From a virus (Duplodnaviria; Caudoviricetes), in the IMG/VR virus record IMGVR_UViG_3300027566_000029, positions 1 to 31,113 of that record: a stretch of 31,113 nucleotides of DNA. One strand, written 5' to 3'. Below, one piece after another: positions 351 through 29,465 of the stretch. The position numbers were made by a program, and so were the translations under genes. The stretch's first letter is position 1; every line of letters starts with the position of its first letter. Under the pieces are notes generated by a model, which saw only the letters and a program-made list of their open reading frames with translations, ran no database searches and was not told the DNA's origin.

Positions 351-1625
351 ATGATAACTCTTAAAATGATGATCCGACCGGATCGACAGAAAAAGGATGG
401 TACCTGGAACGTAAATTTACGAATTTCTTTCCAGAGAAAAACAACTTATATTTCAACTCCATACTTTGTGACAAAATCACAACTCAATAAAGCATTTGAA
501 ATCAAAGATAATTTTCTGCAGATGCAGGTTGATGAAGACCTTAATAAGGCAAGAAGAGAAGTGTCAACCTCATATTCCAAACTTTCGGAACTCAATGCTT
601 CTCAAGTTGGAGAATATTTGTCCAACTTTCTATATTCTAAGAAACGGGATGTGATAAACTTTTTCGATTTCGCTAATAACTATATGGCTATCATGGAAGA
701 GAATAACCAAGCATCCAGGAGAAATTATGTTATCTCAGTTAATAAGGTAAAGTCATTTGTAGGTCATGAAGAATTATCATTCTCTGATATTACTCTTGCA
801 TTTTTGGCAAGCTTTGATTCATGGCTTAAAAATAATGGAGTTGGTACCCGTGGCCGGTCTTTATATTTGTCCAACCTGAGAGCGATTTTTAATGCAGCAA
901 TCCGACATTACAATGATGAAGAGAACGATATTATAAAAATATCCAGAAATCCCTTCAAACGATTCTCCCTTCCAAAAGAAGAGGCTCCGGAAAAAAGAGC
1001 CTTGAAATTACACCAAATAAGGGCATTAATAGTCTATAAACCTCAGAAGGAGACAGTCCAATTTGCAAAGGATGTTTTTTTGTTATCATTTTATCTAGTT
1101 GGTATAAATACAGTTGATCTCTATCAAGTCAATAAGATTTCTGGAGATAGGATAACTTACAAGAGAGCGAAAACCCGTCACTCCCGGGCTGATGGGGCTG
1201 AGATATCAATTAAAATTGAACCAGAGGCCCTGGATCTGATCAAGAAATACCGGGATAAGTCAAACGAGAGAGCGTTGAATTTCCATTTCAGATATTCCAC
1301 GGCAGCCGGATTCAACTCCTCGGTCAATGAATTTTTAAAAGTGATAGGTAAGAATATAGGTGTTGATGAGTTGGATTATTATGCTGCCCGTCACACATGG
1401 GCAACTTTGTTTGTTAACAATTGTGACGGATCGGAATCAGAAGCAGCTTTTTGCCTTAATCATGTATCGGAACACAAAGTAACGACCGGCTATATAAAAA
1501 AGGATTTTGCCAGAATAGATAGGGCAAATAGAAAGGTGTTGGATTATGTGATGAAGCAAATTTATTATTTCAAACTAAAATATATTGGCATTTCTTATAA
1601 ACGCAAATTCTTGATAGGTAAATAA
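351..1625 (+). CDS. int: Tyrosine recombinase / phage integrase
   Basis: 424 aa; N-terminal arm-binding-like region, SAM-like core, YYAARHTWAT, LNH and TTGY catalytic-region motifs; next to tRNA. Confidence 0.93.
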   Translation: MITLKMMIRPDRQKKDGTWNVNLRISFQRKTTYISTPYFVTKSQLNKAFEIKDNFLQMQVDEDLNKARREVSTSYSKLSELNASQVGEYLSNFLYSKKRDVINFFDFANNYMAIMEENNQASRRNYVISVNKVKSFVGHEELSFSDITLAFLASFDSWLKNNGVGTRGRSLYLSNLRAIFNAAIRHYNDEENDIIKISRNPFKRFSLPKEEAPEKRALKLHQIRALIVYKPQKETVQFAKDVFLLSFYLVGINTVDLYQVNKISGDRITYKRAKTRHSRADGAEISIKIEPEALDLIKKYRDKSNERALNFHFRYSTAAGFNSSVNEFLKVIGKNIGVDELDYYAARHTWATLFVNNCDGSESEAAFCLNHVSEHKVTTGYIKKDFARIDRANRKVLDYVMKQIYYFKLKYIGISYKRKFLIGK

Positions 1626-1642: not shown

Positions 1643-2374
1643 TTAGGAAATAGCTGGCATGCTTTGAAAGATCTTCCCATTTATGAGCTTGCCATTCGCT
1701 TTTTTGTTTCTTTTTATACCATCACTGCCCCAGGTTCCCCATTGTTTAAAGAAAAATGCTGCACCTTGGGCTTCAACTTGATTTTTAATCCTGGTAACCC
1801 ATTCTTCTTTCATTGGTCTCGCCTTGTTTCCACTCTCTCCTCCAACAATTACCCAGTCTATATTTGAAAGATCCAATACTCCCAAATCTTCTAACAGTGG
1901 TTCACATGATAAAAATTTTATTGGTGCTGAAAGAGTTCGCAAAAAATCAATTCTGTTTTTAGAGCTTGATACGTCAACAGTGACACCAAGCCAGGCATTT
2001 AAGGGAATTGGATTTTTAGAAAAATAGCTATTCATTCGTTGGGCTCTTTTTGTCAAGATCTGATAGTTGTGGTGTGGAGTAGCATTAATTACATCCATAA
2101 CTTTATCTATAAACTCATCCGAAACTTTTTCATGAAATAAATCACTCATTGAACAAACGAAAATATTATGCGGTTTTTTCCAGGAGAACGGTTCATTTAG
2201 GGCATTCTCATGTGTTGATAAAATAAAACCATTTATATATTTTTCTTGCCTCATAGCCTGAAGCCTTATGGCCATAGTTTCGGCATAACAATTAGCACAA
2301 CCAGCAGAAACCTTTGTACATCCAGTTATCGGATTCCAAGTTTTATCGGTCCACTCAATTTTTGTTGTTTTCAT
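1643..2374 (-). CDS. Phage Gp37/Gp68 (DUF5131) family three-Cys protein
   Basis: IEWTDKTWNPITGCTKVSAGCANCYAE (Cx6Cx2C), FVCSMSDLFH, QILTKR, WVIVGGESG, FFFKQWG. Confidence 0.9.
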   Translation of the reverse strand: MKTTKIEWTDKTWNPITGCTKVSAGCANCYAETMAIRLQAMRQEKYINGFILSTHENALNEPFSWKKPHNIFVCSMSDLFHEKVSDEFIDKVMDVINATPHHNYQILTKRAQRMNSYFSKNPIPLNAWLGVTVDVSSSKNRIDFLRTLSAPIKFLSCEPLLEDLGVLDLSNIDWVIVGGESGNKARPMKEEWVTRIKNQVEAQGAAFFFKQWGTWGSDGIKRNKKANGKLINGKIFQSMPAIS

Positions 2375-3524
2375 TGTTGCAAATTAAAATGTTCTTTTTG
2401 GAATTAAAATCAAGATAAAAAACACCTCTTCGAGGTCTAGGATCATTTACGACAACTATTAACTTTTTCTTTTCCAAGTTTCTAAGTATTTCGTTTGTCT
2501 TAGGAATGCTTATTCCGTTTTCTATGGCAAATATATATAAATTTTTATTTGATTTTGGAGTGACTAAAAACTCAAGCAATCTTAATTCAAAGTAAACTAA
2601 TTTTTTTACACGATTTTGGTTACCATCACTAAATAGATCTATTGTCATTTGGCCTTGTCGTATAGGGTCATTATCAATATCATGATTTGTTTCTCCTGTA
2701 TGCGGATCGATTGTCCAGGCAGCATCTAAAAACTTTGCTAATCCAACAGGGCTATTTGAATAAAATATAATTCCGTAATAGTTTGCACCCTTTTTTATTG
2801 AAAATTGTCCTAAATACCCATTATTGGTTCCTAATATAGACTTATAATAGTTATAGATAACACGATGACATTCTGATGGTTTTTTAGAAGAGAAATCAAG
2901 GTTTGAGATTTCCAAATATTTTTGAAATTCTGGCTGATCCTTAAATCTGACCAAGTGATGAGAGGAAATAAAAAACATGAAATCAGTTTTTTTCAAGCAA
3001 ATCAGCTTTTGAAACACATCTTTTGTAACATATTTAATTCCAAACTGATCTAAGAAAATGAACCTTGGAACATTAGTTCTTGATAAAAACTGATTGAACT
3101 TTTGTTCAAATAATATATTGAAATCCTCATTGTGGACAGATATTTCAAAAGGGCACTCTGATATTGATCTACCGTTACAAAGGTTATGACTCTGATTTTT
3201 TAGACAGATTGAAATTTTATCATCAATATTTTTTTTAAGCGCATCTATTATCGGTCCGGAATTATCATTAAGTGTCAACCTTACTTTACCGCCGTATTGC
3301 TTTATTTTTTTACAGTATATTCTTAACTCATCAAGTATTATCAATGGGCTACCCAAAGCCCCAGAAGAATCTAATCCAATCCCAGAAAAAAAATCTGCAA
3401 TTTCTATAACACTGTATTTTTGTTCGATGAAAACAGGTAGCCAACTTCTTAAATACCTTCTAAACAGTTCTAGTTTAATAAGAGTCCCTTCATCAAAAGG
3501 TGTAGCGAAAAACTTTCTATTCAT
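2355..3524 (-). CDS. tcmP: Three-Cys-motif partner protein (methyltransferase-like fold)
   Basis: TLIKLELFRRYL..W, DFFSGIG..GSPL (SAM motif I-like), FIFLDQFG; overlaps the Gp37/Gp68 gene, its usual partner. Confidence 0.82.
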   Translation of the reverse strand: MNRKFFATPFDEGTLIKLELFRRYLRSWLPVFIEQKYSVIEIADFFSGIGLDSSGALGSPLIILDELRIYCKKIKQYGGKVRLTLNDNSGPIIDALKKNIDDKISICLKNQSHNLCNGRSISECPFEISVHNEDFNILFEQKFNQFLSRTNVPRFIFLDQFGIKYVTKDVFQKLICLKKTDFMFFISSHHLVRFKDQPEFQKYLEISNLDFSSKKPSECHRVIYNYYKSILGTNNGYLGQFSIKKGANYYGIIFYSNSPVGLAKFLDAAWTIDPHTGETNHDIDNDPIRQGQMTIDLFSDGNQNRVKKLVYFELRLLEFLVTPKSNKNLYIFAIENGISIPKTNEILRNLEKKKLIVVVNDPRPRRGVFYLDFNSKKNILICNNENNKN

Positions 3525-9766: not shown

Positions 9767-9889
9767 CCAGATGAAAACAGAAGCCATTTTTGCACTACAG
9801 GAGATCCATGTGTCCGGGGAAAGAGTTGACAGACTTGAAACCCGGGCCGGGTCTTTATCTCAGAAAATAAACCTATAAATTGATTGACG

Positions 9890-10696
9890 ATGAATCAGAT
9901 CTATTTATACAACGGAAATTCAGTCACCTTTCAATTTGGCAACGGTGATGTTATGGTTAATGCCACTGAGATGGCCAGACCCTTCGGCAAAAGAGCAGCT
10001 GAGTGGTTAAGGCTTCCGTCCACCATGCAATTCATGTCTGCATTGGAAGCTATGGGAAAATCCCATAGGTCGGAATTGATAGTTACCGAGAACGGTGTCG
10101 GCACCTGGTTGCACGAAGATGTCGCTATCGAGTTTGCACGCTGGCTCTCTCCTTCTTTCCTCATATGGTGCAATGACAGGATCAAGGAGCTATTGAGACA
10201 CGGAGTCACTGCATCACCAAACACGATTGAGGATTTCCTTAATAATCCGGATTTTCTCATAGACGCTCTTAATGAATTAAAGAGAGAACGGGCCGAAAAA
10301 CAAATAATTCACGGAAAGAACATACAGTTGCAGGAGACGATCTTGAGACAAACTCCTCGAGTTAGGTTCTCTGAGGCTGTAGAGGCATCTCAGCAATCCA
10401 TCTTGATTGGAGACCTGGCCAAGGTGTTATTCCAGCGTGGTGTTGAAATTGGTCAAAACAGGTTGTTCAAAATCCTACGTAGTAAAGGTTATCTATGTAG
10501 TAAGGGTGACCTGTACAATTCTCCTACTCAGCGTTCCATGGAAATGGGTCTTTTTGAGATCAAGAAAAACCTGGTCATCAAAGCAAATGGAACGACCCTG
10601 GTAACGTCAACACCAATGGTAACCGGCAAAGGACAGGTCTATTTTGTAAATAAGTTTTTGGATAAGAAAGATAAAAATTTAAGTAGTAAATCATGA
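9890..10696 (+). CDS. Phage antirepressor (KilA-N plus KilAC/ANT domain)
   Basis: MVNATEMARPFGK..WLRL, GTWLHEDVAIEFARWLSPSF.IWCN; C-terminal IGQNRLF.ILR..GYL...PTQRSME.GLF...TP.VTGKGQVYF. Confidence 0.92.
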   Translation: MNQIYLYNGNSVTFQFGNGDVMVNATEMARPFGKRAAEWLRLPSTMQFMSALEAMGKSHRSELIVTENGVGTWLHEDVAIEFARWLSPSFLIWCNDRIKELLRHGVTASPNTIEDFLNNPDFLIDALNELKRERAEKQIIHGKNIQLQETILRQTPRVRFSEAVEASQQSILIGDLAKVLFQRGVEIGQNRLFKILRSKGYLCSKGDLYNSPTQRSMEMGLFEIKKNLVIKANGTTLVTSTPMVTGKGQVYFVNKFLDKKDKNLSSKS

Positions 10697-11304: not shown

Positions 11305-11736
11305 ATGAAAAAGACACAAAAAAATGAAGAGGTCCTGTATGGGGACATCAGAGACAAAATCAAGTCATTTGAGGACGCTAGCGAGACAAAGGGACAGGAT
11401 TCTAATGCTCTTCCGGTTGTAGATAATCTCCTGGAGAAGGACCGTAAATCCATTATCGCTTTTATTAAGCTTACAAGTATTATCCGGGCATTGAACGAAG
11501 GATGGGAACCTGATTGGAAAGATTGGAATCAGCGCAAATGGTTCAACTATTTTTATTATGATTCGGCCTCCGGTTTCGTCTACTCGCTTACGCATTATAC
11601 GCTTACGTATTCGTTTATCGGCTCCCGGCTTTGCTTTAAAGACCCTAAGGTTGCAGAATATGCAAGAGAACAATTCAAACAATTGTATATAGACTATCTT
11701 CTTATTGATGGTCCAGACAGTTCTGAAGTAAAATAA
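11305..11736 (+). CDS. DGR target protein 1 (143 aa)
   Basis: Contains VR1; RALNEGWEPDW and GSRLCFK motifs. Confidence 0.88.
   Translation: MKKTQKNEEVLYGDIRDKIKSFEDASETKGQDSNALPVVDNLLEKDRKSIIAFIKLTSIIRALNEGWEPDWKDWNQRKWFNYFYYDSASGFVYSLTHYTLTYSFIGSRLCFKDPKVAEYAREQFKQLYIDYLLIDGPDSSEVK
11562..11633 (+). repeat. DGR variable repeat VR1
   Basis: Ungapped 72-nt match to 12602-12673 with 12 mismatches, all at TR adenines. Confidence 0.95.
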
Positions 11737-11753
11737 CTTAATCAGAGTCTATT

Positions 11754-12234
11754 ATGAAAACATTACAGATTGACGAAAAGAATGCACGGGCGTTATACAA
11801 GGGAGCCTCAAAAGAGTTTAAGGCAACTCTGGAAGATACGTTTGGAAAGGAGTTTTTCTCAGGGAACATCACCGATCGTATAAAAACACTCGATGATGTT
11901 TTTATCGAAAATGGTCGGGATCCTGAAGAGATAACAGCCATACTCGAAAATTCAGACTTAGAAGAAGATGAAAAATATTATAAAATATTAAAACATATCA
12001 CCAGGGCATTGAACGAGGGATGGGAACCTGACTGGGCAGATTCCTCTCAGGGGAAATATTACCCTTGGTTAGAGTTTAGCCGTTCGGCCTCCGGTTTCTT
12101 CTTCTCGATTACGTCTTTTTACGCTTACGGTTACGATTATCGGCTCCCGGCTTTGCTTTAAAGACCCTAAGCTTGCAAAATATGCAGGAACTCAATTCAT
12201 TGATATTTACAACAAATATTTACTTGCAAAATAG
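11754..12234 (+). pseudogene. DGR target protein 2, paralog of target 1, +1 frameshift inside VR2 (159 aa if corrected)
   Basis: RALNEGWEPDW motif; removing one nt at 12114-12120 restores IGSRLCFKDPKLAKYAGTQFIDIYNKYLLAK* matching target 1; as written stops at 12161. Confidence 0.8.
12080..12155 (+). repeat. DGR variable repeat VR2
   Basis: Matches 12599-12673 with about 13 mismatches at TR adenines, one non-A mismatch (GTC>TTC) and a 1-nt insertion. Confidence 0.92.
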
Positions 12235-12239
12235 CAAAT

Positions 12240-12572
12240 ATGTCAACAGAAGATGATGGATCACTAGCATGTTTAGGTATACCTCCTGATGTAAATCTCA
12301 GGAGGTTTAACTGCAAGGAAACTACTCAGCAGAATTTAACAAACCTCTCTTTTTGGGTTATTGATTTCTTTGAAAATGTAAAGACAAGATTTGGAGAAAA
12401 CCGTTTCCTTGTTAAGATCAAATACAATCTTGATGACAAAGAAGAGGATGCCCGCAAGTTCTTTACAAATTCATTTGAGATTAAGTATGTACTTCAGAGA
12501 ATTAAGGAGTTGAATAAGTTTCCGCGCAAAGTGACTATGAAAGCTTCCGGGACTAGGTATTATTTTGAATGA
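12240..12572 (+). CDS. Candidate DGR accessory protein (not Avd-like)
   Basis: 110 aa immediately 5' of TR, the usual avd position; beta-strand-like patterns (FWVIDF, RFLVKIK, KFFTNS, FPRKVTM, RYYFE). Confidence 0.6.
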   Translation: MSTEDDGSLACLGIPPDVNLRRFNCKETTQQNLTNLSFWVIDFFENVKTRFGENRFLVKIKYNLDDKEEDARKFFTNSFEIKYVLQRIKELNKFPRKVTMKASGTRYYFE

Positions 12573-12598: not shown

Positions 12599-12673
12599 CC
12601 GTTCGGCCTCCGGTTTCGTCTACTCGAATACGAATTATACGAATACGAATACGAATATCAGCTCCCAGCTATG
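12599..12673 (+). ncRNA. DGR template repeat (TR)
   Basis: AAT/ACG-rich copy between accessory gene and RT; carries A where both VRs vary. Confidence 0.93.
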
Positions 12674-12776
12674 TGGGAAAACAAAAGAGCAGGGACCTTG
12701 CCTCTTGGCAAAAAATAAACGATTACAGAGAGTATTGGTAAGGAAACTGAAGATTCTCTTAAAACCAGCAAAAACG

Positions 12777-13763
12777 ATGAAAAGACTCAGTAATTTATAT
12801 GATCAGATCTGCAGCATGGAAAATCTTATCCTGGCTGACCAAAAGGCACGTAAGGGAAAACTACGCTCTTATGGTGTTATCCGGCATGATATCCACAGAG
12901 AGAAAAATATAAAAAACCTGCATGAAGCCCTGATGAGCGGATCTTATCGTACATCCGGTTACACTATCTTTAAGATTTACGACCCAAAGGAGCGTGAGAT
13001 TTACCGTCTGCCTTATTATCCTGATAGGATTGTACATCACGCAATAATGAACGTGCTTGAGCCAATTTTCGTCGCAATATTCACAAAAGACACATACAGT
13101 TGCATAAAGAGCAGGGGAATTCACGGAGCTCTTGTAAGCGTGAAAAAGACACTTAAAGAAGATCCTACCGGGACAACCTATTGTCTTAAGCTTGATATCA
13201 AAAAGTTCTATCCTTCAATCGATCATGAGATACTGAAATCGATAATCCGGAGAAAGATAAAAGATGTCCGGCTATTGTCACTGCTTGACGAAATTGTTGA
13301 CTCAGCTCCCGGTGTTCCGATCGGTAATTACCTATCACAATATTTCGCCAACCTATATCTTGCATATTTCGATCACTGGTTAAAGGAAGTAAAGCACGTA
13401 AGTTATTATTTCAGATACGCTGACGATATGGTAATTCTTCATAGCAGCAAGCAATATCTGAGAGACCTCTTCAATGAGATGCAGGAATATTTAAGTACTG
13501 AGTTAAATCTTACAATCAAAGGTAATTGGCAGATATTCCCAGTCAAATCACGGGGGATTGACTTCCTGGGATATGTTTTCTTTCACACACATATCTTATT
13601 ACGCAAGGGTATCAAGAGCAGGTTCTGCAGACGGGTATCAAAGCTGAATAAAAGAAGTTTAAATGAAAAAGATTATAAAAAATCAATTTGCTCATGGCTG
13701 GGATGGGCCAAGCATTGCAACAGCAAAAATTTACTGAGTAAGATATTATTGCAACCGACATAA
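12777..13763 (+). CDS. DGR reverse transcriptase (328 aa)
   Basis: KEREI...PDRIVHHA, LKLDIKKFYPSIDH, GVPIGNYLSQYFAN (DGR-type SQ), YFRYADD, GIDFLGY; no maturase/endonuclease extension. Confidence 0.95.
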   Translation: MKRLSNLYDQICSMENLILADQKARKGKLRSYGVIRHDIHREKNIKNLHEALMSGSYRTSGYTIFKIYDPKEREIYRLPYYPDRIVHHAIMNVLEPIFVAIFTKDTYSCIKSRGIHGALVSVKKTLKEDPTGTTYCLKLDIKKFYPSIDHEILKSIIRRKIKDVRLLSLLDEIVDSAPGVPIGNYLSQYFANLYLAYFDHWLKEVKHVSYYFRYADDMVILHSSKQYLRDLFNEMQEYLSTELNLTIKGNWQIFPVKSRGIDFLGYVFFHTHILLRKGIKSRFCRRVSKLNKRSLNEKDYKKSICSWLGWAKHCNSKNLLSKILLQPT

Positions 13764-14264: not shown

Positions 14265-14462
14265 ATGACAGACCTGGATAAATTTAAAGAGCTATACGAA
14301 TCAGTTGGCATAAAGCTCACTGAAGCTACCTACCCGAATGGCACCAGTACCCTTACACTAGGTGTGGATAGAAATAAAAAATTTGGAGGAGACATCAACG
14401 TCTATTCAGATATTGAATTTGACCAGGATGGAAAATTCATCTGCCAAAATTTCTTTGATTAA
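14265..14462 (+). CDS. Hypothetical protein
   Basis: 65 aa, operon-packed. Confidence 0.55.
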   Translation: MTDLDKFKELYESVGIKLTEATYPNGTSTLTLGVDRNKKFGGDINVYSDIEFDQDGKFICQNFFD

Positions 14463-14490
14463 TAAAAAGTTAAATAATTATATTATAACC

Positions 14491-15849
14491 ATGACAACAA
14501 TTTTCCTTCCTTATCTCGATTTCAACCGGCATTTTCCGACAATAGTAGCCCTTTATGATGCCAAGGCAGCTGAGTACAACGGACAAGTGGCAATCGAACG
14601 CGATTCAGGAGATCGCTCAAGAAACTTCCTTAAAAGCTCACACAGGGAGCTGTATTTTGACTTAATCCGTGCGATCAAAGGTAAAATGGCTAGTGATATG
14701 CTAGTCTTCAAGGATGCCCAAAAACTGCTTGCCATTGCTGCTGGATCCATGATAGTTCTCCAGACGAACAGGAAGAGATTGTCGGAAAGGACGAAAAAAA
14801 GCGAGGTTACGATCTATAGACTCATCGAGAGGCTCATAGATGCAAGGATACTTACCGAGAAGGTAAACCACGGCACTCAGAGGGACTTTGAACTTCATCT
14901 CCGACCAGACATGGTACCTGTTTCGGACGCGAAAAGCGAGAAATTTAACCCCCTGGCCTTTATTTTGAAAAACTCAATAGACAGTGCGATTCAGGAGACC
15001 TTACGTTCAATTTGCACGCCATGTTCTAGTAACAAGAACTCTTTTAATAATAAAATAATCACAGGGAACTTACCAGAACACGATGCGGTATCACCTGCGG
15101 TGATGAATTACAATGAACAAACTAGAACTATTCACGGGAACACAGGAGATCCAGTCACTTGTGCCGACGAATTGTTCGCCTCAAAGATCGCAAAAATTAA
15201 CATGTTTGCAGGCAAGGGAATATTGGTCAATGCTTTTGGAGTATCCCTAAGCCCGGAAAATGATTTGAAAATTAACACATCTAAAAATAAAGCCGGTGAT
15301 TATGGGCGGAAAATTGAAGAATTGAGGAAGAAAGAGGAGGAAAGATCCCGGATATATTCGATGCAACTGGTAGAATTTGTCATATCCATTCTCTTCGGAG
15401 ACCGGACAATCTATAAGGCTGAAAGAGAGAAAGCTTACAAGCATGCACAATATTATTTCAAGATGTTCAATACCGGTCCGGACTGTGAAAGAGCCATGGA
15501 AGGTTATCGGGAACGAGTCAGAATGGTCCAGCGATATCTGGAGAAGCATAAAGAATTCGACTTTTCAAACATATTTCCTGCCAGGTACATGGATCCGGAG
15601 AATTACCAGTGCAGCTTTATCATGACTCAGAAATGGCTCAAGAAACAAAAGGAATATCACGAGTTGCAACAAAAGACCCGAAAACTGAAGACCGAGGAGG
15701 CAATTCTCACCTACGCTCTGACTAGAATGGTGAAATGGAAGAATCCATCATCATTCGAGTATTGGAAAACATACGTTATCAATAAGGCTCCAGGCAAAGT
15801 CATGGACTATGAAACCAGGGCACTGAGCATTATAAAATCAGCAAATTAA
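14491..15849 (+). CDS. Putative replication-initiator-like protein with wHTH
   Basis: TNRKRLSERTKKSEVTIYRLIERLIDARIL wHTH-like segment; position at end of early region; ATG 14491 preferred. Confidence 0.5.
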   Translation: MTTIFLPYLDFNRHFPTIVALYDAKAAEYNGQVAIERDSGDRSRNFLKSSHRELYFDLIRAIKGKMASDMLVFKDAQKLLAIAAGSMIVLQTNRKRLSERTKKSEVTIYRLIERLIDARILTEKVNHGTQRDFELHLRPDMVPVSDAKSEKFNPLAFILKNSIDSAIQETLRSICTPCSSNKNSFNNKIITGNLPEHDAVSPAVMNYNEQTRTIHGNTGDPVTCADELFASKIAKINMFAGKGILVNAFGVSLSPENDLKINTSKNKAGDYGRKIEELRKKEEERSRIYSMQLVEFVISILFGDRTIYKAEREKAYKHAQYYFKMFNTGPDCERAMEGYRERVRMVQRYLEKHKEFDFSNIFPARYMDPENYQCSFIMTQKWLKKQKEYHELQQKTRKLKTEEAILTYALTRMVKWKNPSSFEYWKTYVINKAPGKVMDYETRALSIIKSAN

Positions 15850-16598: not shown

Positions 16599-16643
16599 AA
16601 ATATTTGTACGACCAAGTGTATCGATTTGTCCGATTTGAGTAG

Positions 16644-16684
16644 CAAAAGTGTATCAAAACTGTATCAAAAGTGTATCAAAACTG
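16644..16684 (+). repeat. 11-bp tandem repeat CAAAA(G/C)TGTAT, 3 full copies plus partial
   Basis: CAAAAGTGTAT-CAAAACTGTAT-CAAAAGTGTAT-CAAAACTG in intergenic DNA. Confidence 0.85.
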
Positions 16685-17102: not shown

Positions 17103-17137
17103 GTCCTTTACACCTATATTATAGTGCGGCATATTTG
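17103..17137 (+). promoter_or_regulatory. GTCCTT-N25-TTTG putative phage promoter (head genes)
   Basis: Same spacing as copies at 9758, 21159 and 24926; 13 nt before ATG 17151. Confidence 0.6.
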
Positions 17138-17150
17138 TAAAAAAACAGAT

Positions 17151-18053
17151 ATGCCGCATTCTTTTTTAGACTCTACGCTAAGCATGTTCCGTTTAGCGCC
17201 TTTGCTAATTTCAAAGGAGGCCCTTGCTGAATTCTTGGTGAGATTTGATTACCATATAAAATCCTCAACCCAACCTCCGGAATATTCAAAAATTGTTTCC
17301 GAGAAGATAAAAGCGCTACAGGACCAGGACGAAACAATATCCATAACTTCTGACTATACGGACAGATCCATACCTGAAAGTATAGCCGTTCATTACATTT
17401 CAGGCTTCTTATCCTATGAAAAGTGTTGGTGGTACAGCTCTACAAAACAGTTGATCGAGGATGTGGAAGCAGCGGAGACAAATGAAAAAATAATCGGACA
17501 TGCATTTCTTATCAATAGCCCGGGAGGGGAATCCTATTGTCTTGAGAAAGCGCATGAAATCATTTCTAACCTAAAAAAACCCTCCAGGACAATTTGTGAG
17601 AGGACCATGTGCAGTGCCGGACTATATCTCGGTTGTGCCAGTGACAAGGTTTATTGCCTTAACAAGTTTGACATTGTGGGATCAATAGGGACCATGATAT
17701 CATACTGGGACTTCCGGAAGGCGCTCGAGAAAATGGGTTATGTCCTGGTAGAGGCATATGCTTCATTATCCACTCACAAAAACAAGGTCTCGGATGATCT
17801 GACTGCCGGACAACCGGAAGATTTCATAAAAAGATTTCTGGATCCACTTCAGGCGGATTTCGATGCAGCAGTGAAACGCTCCAGACCTCGTGCGGCAAAG
17901 GCAGATGAGGATGCACATATTTTCAATGGAGAGATATTCTACGCTCAGGAAGCTCTGGGATTAGGGCTCATAGACGGCATAAAAGACATACAGGAAATAT
18001 TCCAGGAACTCTATGAACAAGGTAAAATACAGAATAAAATTTACTCACTTTAA
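17151..18053 (+). CDS. S49 family peptidase (prohead protease)
   Basis: INSPGG, MCSAGLYLG, VGSIGT, GEIFYAQEALGLGLIDGI. Confidence 0.88.
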   Translation: MPHSFLDSTLSMFRLAPLLISKEALAEFLVRFDYHIKSSTQPPEYSKIVSEKIKALQDQDETISITSDYTDRSIPESIAVHYISGFLSYEKCWWYSSTKQLIEDVEAAETNEKIIGHAFLINSPGGESYCLEKAHEIISNLKKPSRTICERTMCSAGLYLGCASDKVYCLNKFDIVGSIGTMISYWDFRKALEKMGYVLVEAYASLSTHKNKVSDDLTAGQPEDFIKRFLDPLQADFDAAVKRSRPRAAKADEDAHIFNGEIFYAQEALGLGLIDGIKDIQEIFQELYEQGKIQNKIYSL

Positions 18054-18064
18054 TTTTTACAAAC

Positions 18065-20068
18065 ATGTTTAAAAAGAACTTTGAAAAAATTCTCGCGACC
18101 TTAGGGTTGCTTGAAAAGGCAAAGAGCAAATCGCTCACAAAAGAGGACTGGACAAAAATTGCCAGCTCCTATAAGGAAACCACTGGCCATGACTTCTATG
18201 CTGATGCAAATGCAGACAGCGAAGATGCAGGTAAAGTCAAGGCTTACGACCATGCGCTTGAAATTTTGTTGAAAGCAAAATCAGCCAGCGAAGATGAGGA
18301 TCCGGAAGAAGATCCTGAAGAGGACCCTAAGGAGGATCCTGAGGAAGATCCTAAAGAGGACCCGGAAGAAGAACCGAAGAAAAAGTCTAAATCAAAGGCT
18401 GAAAACCTTGTGATAGGCATTGAGAAACTGGTTAACAGCAATAAAAAACTTGCCAGCCAGGTAAAAACATTGTCATCAAAAGCGGTTGTTGACACTCCGC
18501 TGGAGATCAGGACCGCCGGACCAATAGGCCTGGGAAGTTTCCATACTCCAAAATTTGCTTTCGGTATCGAGCATCCGATGTTTGAAGCTTCAAAAAGATG
18601 GAATCAAATATTGATGAAGGGAAAAAGGGTGGCCCTTGAGTCTGATCCGGACGACGATACATTTGAGAACTTCCAAAAGGAGTTCAAATCGTATGGTAAG
18701 TCTATTTGCGCACGTATGCAGGAGCTCAAATCAATCGGAGTACTGGATGCAAAATCTCTGAATACAGATGGTACGATCGATTATTCAGGTCTGGAGGAGG
18801 CTGGACTGGGAACACAATACCTGGTGAGAAGACAGGATGCCCTGATAGCCCGTATTATTGCTCTTCCGAATGTTTTTGATGTGTTTCCATTACGTTCAAA
18901 CGTTCAGGATGGTGACATAATCACAAATGCATTCTTTGGTGAATTCTCACAGGCATACCAGGAAGGAGAACTCTCAAAGGGAGGTATGGATCTTGTGCCT
19001 GAAAAGGCCAAAGTTCACGATGTGATGTTCAAAACCCTTTTCAAATCAATGAAATGGATTGAAACACAGTACATCGGTTATCTGAACACAGCAGGATCTG
19101 ACCCGGTAAAATGGCAGATGATTGAGTGGATGTTGCTTAACATTGCCACCGTTTTAAACAACGAACGCAATGTAAGGGCAGTTCTTGGCTATAGAATTGA
19201 GCCTACAGCCGGTAAATCAGGACACTTCCTGAATTCGGCAACCGGTGCAATACATCGTATGATGTCGTATATCGAGGCAAATCAGATATATCCTTTTGAT
19301 GACGATGATTATGCGTCATATACTCCAAGTACCATGATTGACGTAGTGGAAGCCTTTGCAGAGGAAGTCAACCAACTTCTTCCAAACCTTCTGAACAAGG
19401 GAATCTACCTGAATCTGAAACACAAACCGTGGTACCTACAGAGTTACAGAACCAAGTACGGTAAGGATATGGACTTCTCTGGACCTGTGATGAAGCTGAT
19501 GAATTACGACCTTCCGATCATATGGGTACCGAACATGAACAACCTTATGTTTATGTGGATCACTGAAGTAGGCAATATTCAAACGCTTGAAAATGTACCA
19601 GGCGAAATGTACAATACATACTTCGAGAGAAGGCTGGAAAGTGTATGGGGCTTCGCTACATGGAAAGAAGGATCAGCAGCTGCCTATGCAGGTAAGATAT
19701 TTGCAACATTTGCTGCCCTTGTTGCTTCCGGAAGAAAGGACCAGGTTATCTTCATCAACAAGCCGGTTACCAAGCTGGCCGCTGATGCGACCACAATCGA
19801 TGGATCCAAGAACATCTGGTACCTGACTGCTGCCAATACCGCAGATGGAGAGGGTGCTAACCTCGCCTTAACCGACATAACCAACCCTGTAGAAGGTGTT
19901 GTTTATAAGATTGAAGTGGGCTCGGCTTCTAATCCTCAGGTAATCGCAAAAGCCGGGAAGTTCTCTGAAATCACTGAAGCCTGGGAACCGACAGCAGTTG
20001 GTGAATGGATCAAGGTCATCTACGATAAGGCAACATCGAAGTTCCTTGAGGTTGCAAGATCTATCTAG
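18065..20068 (+). CDS. Putative major capsid protein with scaffold-like N-terminus and extra C-terminal domain
   Basis: 667 aa directly after protease; acidic EDP linker; assignment by synteny and architecture. Confidence 0.7.
   Translation: MFKKNFEKILATLGLLEKAKSKSLTKEDWTKIASSYKETTGHDFYADANADSEDAGKVKAYDHALEILLKAKSASEDEDPEEDPEEDPKEDPEEDPKEDPEEEPKKKSKSKAENLVIGIEKLVNSNKKLASQVKTLSSKAVVDTPLEIRTAGPIGLGSFHTPKFAFGIEHPMFEASKRWNQILMKGKRVALESDPDDDTFENFQKEFKSYGKSICARMQELKSIGVLDAKSLNTDGTIDYSGLEEAGLGTQYLVRRQDALIARIIALPNVFDVFPLRSNVQDGDIITNAFFGEFSQAYQEGELSKGGMDLVPEKAKVHDVMFKTLFKSMKWIETQYIGYLNTAGSDPVKWQMIEWMLLNIATVLNNERNVRAVLGYRIEPTAGKSGHFLNSATGAIHRMMSYIEANQIYPFDDDDYASYTPSTMIDVVEAFAEEVNQLLPNLLNKGIYLNLKHKPWYLQSYRTKYGKDMDFSGPVMKLMNYDLPIIWVPNMNNLMFMWITEVGNIQTLENVPGEMYNTYFERRLESVWGFATWKEGSAAAYAGKIFATFAALVASGRKDQVIFINKPVTKLAADATTIDGSKNIWYLTAANTADGEGANLALTDITNPVEGVVYKIEVGSASNPQVIAKAGKFSEITEAWEPTAVGEWIKVIYDKATSKFLEVARSI
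18296..18379 (+). repeat. Coding 12-nt degenerate repeat, (EDP[E/K])x6 plus EEPK
   Basis: EDPE EDPE EDPK EDPE EDPK EDPE EEPK. Confidence 0.85.
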
Positions 20069-29127: not shown

Positions 29128-29465
29128 GCAAGAAAAAAAAGATAGGATTCAGAGCTTCAACTGAGGATCCGGAAGAAAATCCGAAGAAAAAGGAAAAATC
29201 CGAGGACGATATCAGAATGGATGAACTGGCCGATGAGCTCCTGAGTGCTTTTTGTGAGAGGTTCCTGCCGGCAAGCAGTCTTGAGAATTCGACAAACCAG
29301 TTTTCTACGCTCGAAGTGTTTGGATCCATATGCAAGTTTTGCCCAAAAACGGACATTTCATTCCAGAAAATAACGATAGCACTGCTGGAGAGAGAGTATA
29401 AATACGTAATCACACAAAATAACAACAAACTGGAGTACAAGTGGCTTGTACAGGAGAAATTATGA
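29124..29465 (+). CDS. Hypothetical protein
   Basis: 113 aa, ATGA-coupled on both sides. Confidence 0.6.
   Translation: MSKKKKIGFRASTEDPEENPKKKEKSEDDIRMDELADELLSAFCERFLPASSLENSTNQFSTLEVFGSICKFCPKTDISFQKITIALLEREYKYVITQNNNKLEYKWLVQEKL

Follow-up and report, generated by a model that had tools for sequence, protein, structure and literature searches.

The locus described here raises the question of what a diversity-generating retroelement (DGR) may do for a phage when the genes that it rewrites are small and lie in an early region. It was found in the window, by which is meant the whole 31-kb virus record analysed (31,113 nt), in which no tail gene was recognised. In the original prediction, the targets of this DGR were taken to be small early-region proteins and not tail fibres, and overall this view is supported by the gene context across 96 loci and by two complete relatives.

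Gene content of the window

The features of the window are listed in Table 1. The window, which may be a fragment, carries an integrase that marks a temperate phage, followed by a leftward block with a candidate defence pair, PDC-M30. In this pair, a TcmP-like gene and a DUF5131 gene (1643-3524, minus strand), next to the integrase, match PADLOC PDC-M30A and PDC-M30B (E 8e-107 and 1e-114, respectively). A long rightward series of small genes includes a LuxR-type regulator, a PAPS reductase, and a KilA-N/ANT antirepressor, and the head genes start at 17124. Both small targets are located between the antirepressor and the 495-aa ORF, as was proposed; the description of this ORF as replication-like found no backing, with no match in Pfam, PHROG, PADLOC, NCBIfam, or the PDB sequences. 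Relatives of the ORF come after the DGR in three other loci (L003, L052, and L074).

The run that best matches the window is a groundwater metagenome, from which the window may derive. A Bacteroidota host is presumed because all 16 of the 16 cellular loci with a relative belong to Bacteroidota. Several repeats were also observed in the window. A 12-nt tandem repeat (18296-18391) is part of a 667-aa ORF, and a related copy occurs at a distance of 10.8 kb (29163-29205); 11-nt tandem repeats with a 25-nt inverted repeat (16640-16683 and 17114-17169), possibly regulatory, lie between the early and head regions. A promoter scan gave no excess over shuffled sequences.

Table 1. Features of the window around and including the DGR cassette.
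Feature	Coordinates	Strand	Remarks
Tyrosine integrase	351..1625	+	Pfam/PHROG-type library matches; marks temperate phage
KilA-N/ANT antirepressor	9884..10696	+	Library matches; upstream marker of early region
Target 1, short form (S)	11305..11736	+	143 aa; phrog_11581 / PC_00007-type family
VR1	11562..11633	+	Residues about 87-110 of target 1
3' flank of VR1	11620..11649	+	30 nt identical to 12142-12171 behind VR2; diverges from TR
Target 2, long form (L)	11754..12234	+	35-aa N-terminal module; frameshifted
VR2	12083..12155	+	1-nt insertion at 12114-12120
Accessory gene	12240..12572	+	110 aa; phrog_19665; upstream of TR
Template repeat (TR)	12602..12673	+	72 nt; 20 adenines; AAT-rich
RT-17 RNA motif (Rfam RF03020)	12694..12775	+	42.7 bits; gathering score 40.4
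DGR reverse transcriptase (RT)	12777..13763	+	328 aa; open frame; YADD; RVT_1, phrog_1423
495-aa ORF	14362-15849		Downstream of DGR cassette

The DGR cassette

A complete DGR is present in the window. A three-copy repeat beginning at 11562, 12083, and 12602 constitutes the set of VR1, VR2, and TR, and a TR-derived pattern has 3 matches in the window versus 0 in 100 shuffles. VR1 differs from the TR at 12 of 72 positions, all of them among the 20 TR adenines (P about 8e-9), and VR2, after one gap, has 14 mismatches, 13 of which are at adenines. Therefore, both genes are true DGR targets, in agreement with the original prediction.

The 30-nt 3' flank shared by the two VRs is likely an IMH-type homing-initiation site, placed within coding sequence. 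It includes three codons seen in no other listed locus, and the sharing of this flank by VR1 and VR2 suggests homogenisation between the paralogs. A DNA hairpin within the genes, downstream of the VR, was also considered; its signal is weak and inconsistent between VR1 (z -2.45) and VR2 (z 0.12), and third-position pairing was 31/81 (p 0.02) and 39/81 (p 0.17).

The accessory-gene cluster was found beside the RT in 44 of 97 loci. The gene gave neither a Pfam match nor a match to an Avd family, and it is Avd-like by size and position only. The RT-17 motif falls exactly in the spacer between TR and RT, which suggests that it is a DGR spacer RNA. The order of target, accessory gene, TR, and RT and the adenine-specific change resemble those of the DGR of Bordetella phage BPP-1, which consists of mtd, avd, TR, and brt. 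In BPP-1 the variable protein is a C-type lectin of the tail fibre and has its VR at the end, whereas the targets in the window are 14-18 kDa, are predicted to be helical, and have a VR followed by about 25-33 conserved residues.

The two target genes

Target 1 has the length that was first claimed, and RALNEGWEPDW is present in both target genes. Targets 1 and 2 match phrog_11581 with E values of 4e-24 and 8e-15, and the marks of the family that were looked for were all found, namely KTFEDAC, ALNEGWxPDW, GSRLCF, and an internal VR at 0.64-0.82 of the protein length (about 0.61-0.77 for VR1). About 30 residues had been said to follow the VR; there are 33 behind VR1, and the family median is 26 after GSRL (252 proteins). 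With hydropathy as a proxy for a signal peptide, target 1 has no hydrophobic N-terminus or membrane segment, and among 297 homologs 9 pass a lax hydropathy cut-off, none of which looks signal-like by eye.

Target 2 is not an intact protein of about 159 aa, as was thought; its ORF stops at 12161 after 135 aa, and 159 aa are obtained only by reading through the break with an X. The cause is the 1-nt insertion inside VR2, which the original prediction had overlooked. The resulting frameshift removes GSRLCFK and the C-terminal helices, and the C-terminus typical of the family ends at 12234 in the other frame. The insertion is probably not an assembly slip because a contig of run X1, the possible origin of the window, bridges it without differences, and a contig of run X2 carries it too, up to its end 13 nt beyond. 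Run X1 also has a 33.6-kb contig that extends beyond the end of the window. DGRs can produce such insertions. This one falls on a TR AAT codon; it may have arisen as a side effect of retrohoming, in which case a further round could replace it. An intact 158-aa relative of target 2 is present in another locus, L001. Target 1 has unusual residues at 7 of 53 near-invariant columns, and only 1 of 120 members equals or exceeds this number. Given the frameshift of target 2 and these substitutions in target 1, the copy in the window may be non-functional.

It follows to ask whether the cassette is decaying here, with the targets as passengers and hypermutation continuing or stopped without a selected binding function. 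Besides the frameshift and the seven substitutions, no VR variant contigs were found in run X1, where contigs drop rare variants. However, the RT is open, and dN/dS outside the VR, compared with L001, is 0.18 for target 1 and 0.14 for target 2, like that of the accessory gene (0.15); therefore, purifying selection has acted over the branch to L001. In addition, related strains in runs X3 and X4 bear other VR1 alleles, the 10 listed differences of which all face TR adenines. Overall, decay without a selected function appears very unlikely. Run X3 is an RNA run that covers a relative, and its coverage says nothing about transcription.

The target family

Target 1 has 419 close homologs, and a profile search gave 3,877 clusters at 50% identity. 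A comparison of 120 homologs shows strong conservation of the scaffold and the highest entropy at residues 95, 97, 100, 102, and 104, which are the AAT codons. An invariant VR among homologs, which would have spoken against the original prediction, was therefore not observed. At AAY codons, Tyr and His make up 15% and 7.7% of 559 residues versus 6.8% and 3.7% expected, an enrichment that could reflect either paratope-like selection or a positional bias of the RT.

An RT is located within 8 kb in 54 of 96 fetched loci, and a matching TR within 8 kb in 55 of 96; these counts apply to loci other than the window and are biased, since the loci were fetched by a short-form query with 8-kb flanks. 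Among 33 records without an adjacent RT (31 viral contigs and two annotated phages; a further 10 RT-less loci from genome contigs lie outside this search), 8 have an RT elsewhere. In 7 of these 8, the TR of the distant RT matches the VR of the small gene with 0-1 non-adenine mismatch, and that TR has a second match, to the VR that ends a long gene next to the RT. An RT is missing altogether from 8 of 13 near-complete phages in which none is adjacent, although the target genes are kept.

Three further observations concern the history of these cassettes. First, a group of phages (L004-L021, L025, L026, and L036) carries short and long pairs with differing VRs and no RT in the complete genomes; close relatives of this RT-less group (L008, L010, L022, and L032) have kept the cassette, and L009 retains the accessory gene only. 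Second, in L078/L107 and L077, VR-like codons replace AAY in the TR itself, possibly by TR-to-TR rewriting. Third, L055, L071 (8028-8399), and L089 (8022-8375) have an extra long-form target about 6 kb downstream of the TR, and this target is served by the same TR.

Early-region context

Of the 96 loci, 76 contain one or more early markers (repressor, antirepressor, SSB, recombinase, Mu transposase/Gam, methyltransferase, or replication initiator), the other 20 being without a recognised marker. Two structural clusters could be recognised among 53 annotated representatives; they share the strand of the targets in 0 of 96 loci and have the opposite strand in 12 of 96. Matches of the TR pattern in two complete relatives (G032 and G033) are confined to the TR and the two small VRs; for two further complete records the pattern was unsuitable. 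The targets have neither a tail-module location nor a multi-domain fibre architecture. A remote tail VR may nevertheless exist in this phage, given that the window is perhaps a fragment.

Members of the family also occur in other phages. One is present in crassvirus cr56_1. Another is LoVEphage AUSP0023_00079 (E 4e-31), whose VR matches a distant TR and whose neighbourhood consists of methyltransferase and tRNA-ligase genes. The gp100 protein of crAss001 (L111 32164-32904) aligns with the long form end to end and colinearly, although weakly (hhalign E 3e-4, probability 18-36%); it ranked at the top of 2,000 shuffles but was picked after the fact, and a separate search of the genome found no match. 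According to PMC8375218, gp100 belongs to the early operon of that phage.

These results bear on the possibility that the family, though encoded out of place, supplies minor components of the virion, ejected proteins, or accessories of receptor binding. The same TR serves a tail-region target and the small target family in several phages, 23 of 140 members weakly match phrog_5302 'tail protein', and clusters of this type could be unrecognised structural proteins (PMC8144416). The consistent early-region context argues otherwise, as do the similarity to tail targets, which is limited to the templated segment (see below), and the prediction of only 1.6% of PC_00007, the published cluster of this family, as structural in PMC8144416. 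A virion role therefore seems highly improbable. The literature search found no paper on virion proteomics of this family.

Predicted fold

An AlphaFold2 model on a 140-row alignment reached pLDDT 81 and pTM 0.76, and the first model agrees with it. Helices were modelled at residues 22-28, 44-63, 114-123, and 125-132, with scaffold blocks at pLDDT about 90 and the VR loop below 50. The models predict a mainly helical scaffold on which the VR forms a flexible loop, with GSRLCF closing it. The minimal CLec-like fold that was expected gained no support, since the models are mainly helical and without a lectin match, the VR loop being poorly modelled. Foldseek against the PDB gave no match with either of the two models, VIA gave a best Z of 3.7 with no lectin in the top 50 of 48,161 chains, and a PDB sequence search gave no relative of the targets. 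In the ESM Atlas only unnamed viral clusters were matched, and in BFVD only uncharacterised phage proteins with E >0.001. A missing structural match does not prove a new fold.

The family profile was compared with six tail-type targets that use related TRs, which are assigned to the CLec type by their motifs, Pfam giving no match. Only 27 columns align, namely the templated segment, and when the last 42 residues of the tail-type targets are removed the probability falls from 93% to 0.1% (with a shallow profile). The VR corresponds to the 3' part of the tail-target VR, and in some members the loop lengthens to the tail-type VLFGG...GSRL segment. The simplest reading of these comparisons is that a DGR segment may have been grafted onto an unrelated helical scaffold; with the loop poorly modelled, the targets may instead be a degenerate lectin. 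A lectin-type disulfide, C26-C110, was considered and rejected, with no covariation (p 0.58).

Pairing of short and long forms

The short form has about 125-140 aa, and the long form has an extra N-terminal module of 30-40 aa. Among multi-copy lineages, 41 of 44 mix short and long forms in either gene order at 80% clustering (26 of 29 at 65%). A core-domain tree groups the proteins by form, with 14 label changes versus 37.8 when shuffled; it is a quick tree of 115 rows with one row left out, and most of its forks are weak. Fused two-domain proteins exist as well, with two VR-type loops each. In the two-domain fusions, a module that resembles the N-terminus of the long form is found at the C-terminus. 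Fusion proteins include P0192, P0128, and P0272-P0275; one member has an HTH-like C-terminal stretch (by eye), and no effector domain recurs among the fusions.

For the intact pair of L001, complex prediction gave a score of 0.59 versus 0.00 for the best of 3 controls, the runs agreeing in at least 93% of contacts and with partner pLDDT of at least 78. Of 157 solved complexes 116 reached the mark used, and of 215 mismatched pairs 2 did; among those that passed with scores of 0.60 or below were no more than 18 of the solved complexes, together with the two mismatched pairs. The controls were without homodimers, and paralogs could score alike. The prediction gives weak support to a heterodimer of short and long forms.

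Alternatively, the paralogs may be independent binders, monomeric or homo-oligomeric and possibly strongly reduced lectin derivatives, whose copies widen the repertoire, and the two forms may go back to an old duplication. Such independence is consistent with the weak complex score, with loci of three or four copies, and with single copies within the fetched stretch in 17 of 61 lineages. A lectin origin is consistent with the relation of the VR to the 3' part of the tail-target VR, which can lengthen to its full form, and with the Quimbyvirus distal target, which is called a C-type lectin (PMC8008677). However, the mixed pairs in nearly all multi-copy lineages and the fused two-domain proteins argue against independence, and the loss of profile similarity without the last 42 residues argues against a lectin origin. 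Independent binders are quite unlikely on this evidence.

Relation to published families

In Roux et al. 2021 (PMC8144416), PC_00007 is described as 'Phage_other', DGR clade 1, and 'non-structural/unknown'. It is among the 24 largest target clusters, with at least 1,694 mentions in the table, and its members share the motifs of the window targets when compared by eye. The target list of that study holds at least 80 occurrences of ALNEGW proteins, and a tandem long and short pair (2576065990/2576065991) is assigned to PC_00007. The main text anticipates that VR domains of this kind will prove to be new variants of C-Lec; early-region context, a fold model, the pairing of short and long forms, and a function were not found for PC_00007 in the parts of the paper that are accessible.

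Macadangdang et al. (bioRxiv 2024.11.15.621889 / PMC11601372) list a Bacteroides variable-protein cluster 15, in domain group 4 (Table S4). It resembles the family in having B. fragilis prophage DGRs, 126-aa ALNEGW targets, and a similar RT/TR layout. Cluster 15 is, however, only listed there, and the experiments concern the group 1 pilin-tip, periplasmic BovT/BfiT. One row of Table S14 gives a non-significant HHpred hit to 5VF4 (E 1.9). BovT/BfiT was considered as the same family and rejected by description only (30-45 TR adenines, pilin head, periplasmic).

The Quimbyvirus distal DGR target is described as non-structural, and counter-defence was suggested for it (Benler 2021, PMC8008677), as it was for the distal non-structural target of LoVEphage, Wilby, and Shia-type prophages (PMC12629997). 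From these sources, a non-structural target among methyltransferase and tRNA-ligase genes appears to be a common element; however, in those phages a tail gene and a single small gene far from it depend on one TR, whereas the window has an early cassette with two adjacent small targets. The Quimbyvirus distal target is probably a family member.

The window targets appear, by sequence comparison, to be new members of a catalogued, uncharacterised target family. The idea is less new than the original prediction implied because the family has been published as a non-structural cluster and counter-defence has already been suggested. The parts not found in print are the proposed pairing and the unmatched predicted fold, both of which derive from prediction and gene context. 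No structure, ligand, or function for the family was found in the literature searches, which covered sources other than subscription papers, figures, and bioRxiv supplements.

Proposed function of the pair

One possible scheme, to which we give a probability of about 0.45, is that the DGR-rewritten early tandem genes yield a short and long heterodimer, likely a cytoplasmic two-loop binder of variable host proteins, most likely of anti-phage defence. The complete DGR of this temperate phage has rewritten, at template adenines, one loop in each small tandem gene. The pair would be expressed early and would be located in the cytoplasm, in keeping with the lack of a signal or membrane segment by hydropathy. 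The S and L products would assemble as a heterodimer, as predicted for the pair of a relative, and the two-loop binder would then target fast-changing host proteins, most likely defence components. The reasons for ranking host proteins first are that the genes are found together with the lytic early module, with methyltransferases, and with Gam, and that a crassvirus has a member as well. Searches of PADLOC and the PDB gave no sequence or structural relative that points to defence.

In a stronger and doubtful form of the scheme, the binder would be an obligate two-chain protein, in which a DGR segment is grafted on an unsolved non-lectin scaffold and combinatorial, antibody-like diversity neutralises host immune proteins intracellularly in phages of Bacteroidota.

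The hypervariable pair may instead be directed against superinfecting or co-resident phages, binding their capsid, repressor, or replication proteins and thereby blocking them or triggering a response. The temperate context and the antirepressor close by, in the window and in many loci, are consistent with such a target, as is the candidate PDC-M30 defence pair that the phage also has, and competing phages would presumably evolve fast enough to reward hypermutation. However, the genes are on the lytic early strand behind the repressor and not with the oppositely oriented moron genes, the fusions lack a recurring effector domain, and a member is present in cr56_1. A competing phage is therefore an unlikely target, and variable host proteins are preferred.

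Implications

The role of non-structural phage DGR targets is an open question in print (PMC8008677, PMC8144416, and PMC12629997). The locus in the window, a partly broken copy from a groundwater metagenome, is a poor experimental model. The target family itself is carried by Bacteroides prophages that can be cultivated. Should the pairing and the unmatched fold prove true, they would be an exception to the C-type lectin fold that DGR variable domains nearly always have, and a scaffold of 125 residues able to accept a randomised loop in the cytoplasm would, if true, be useful as a framework for binders.
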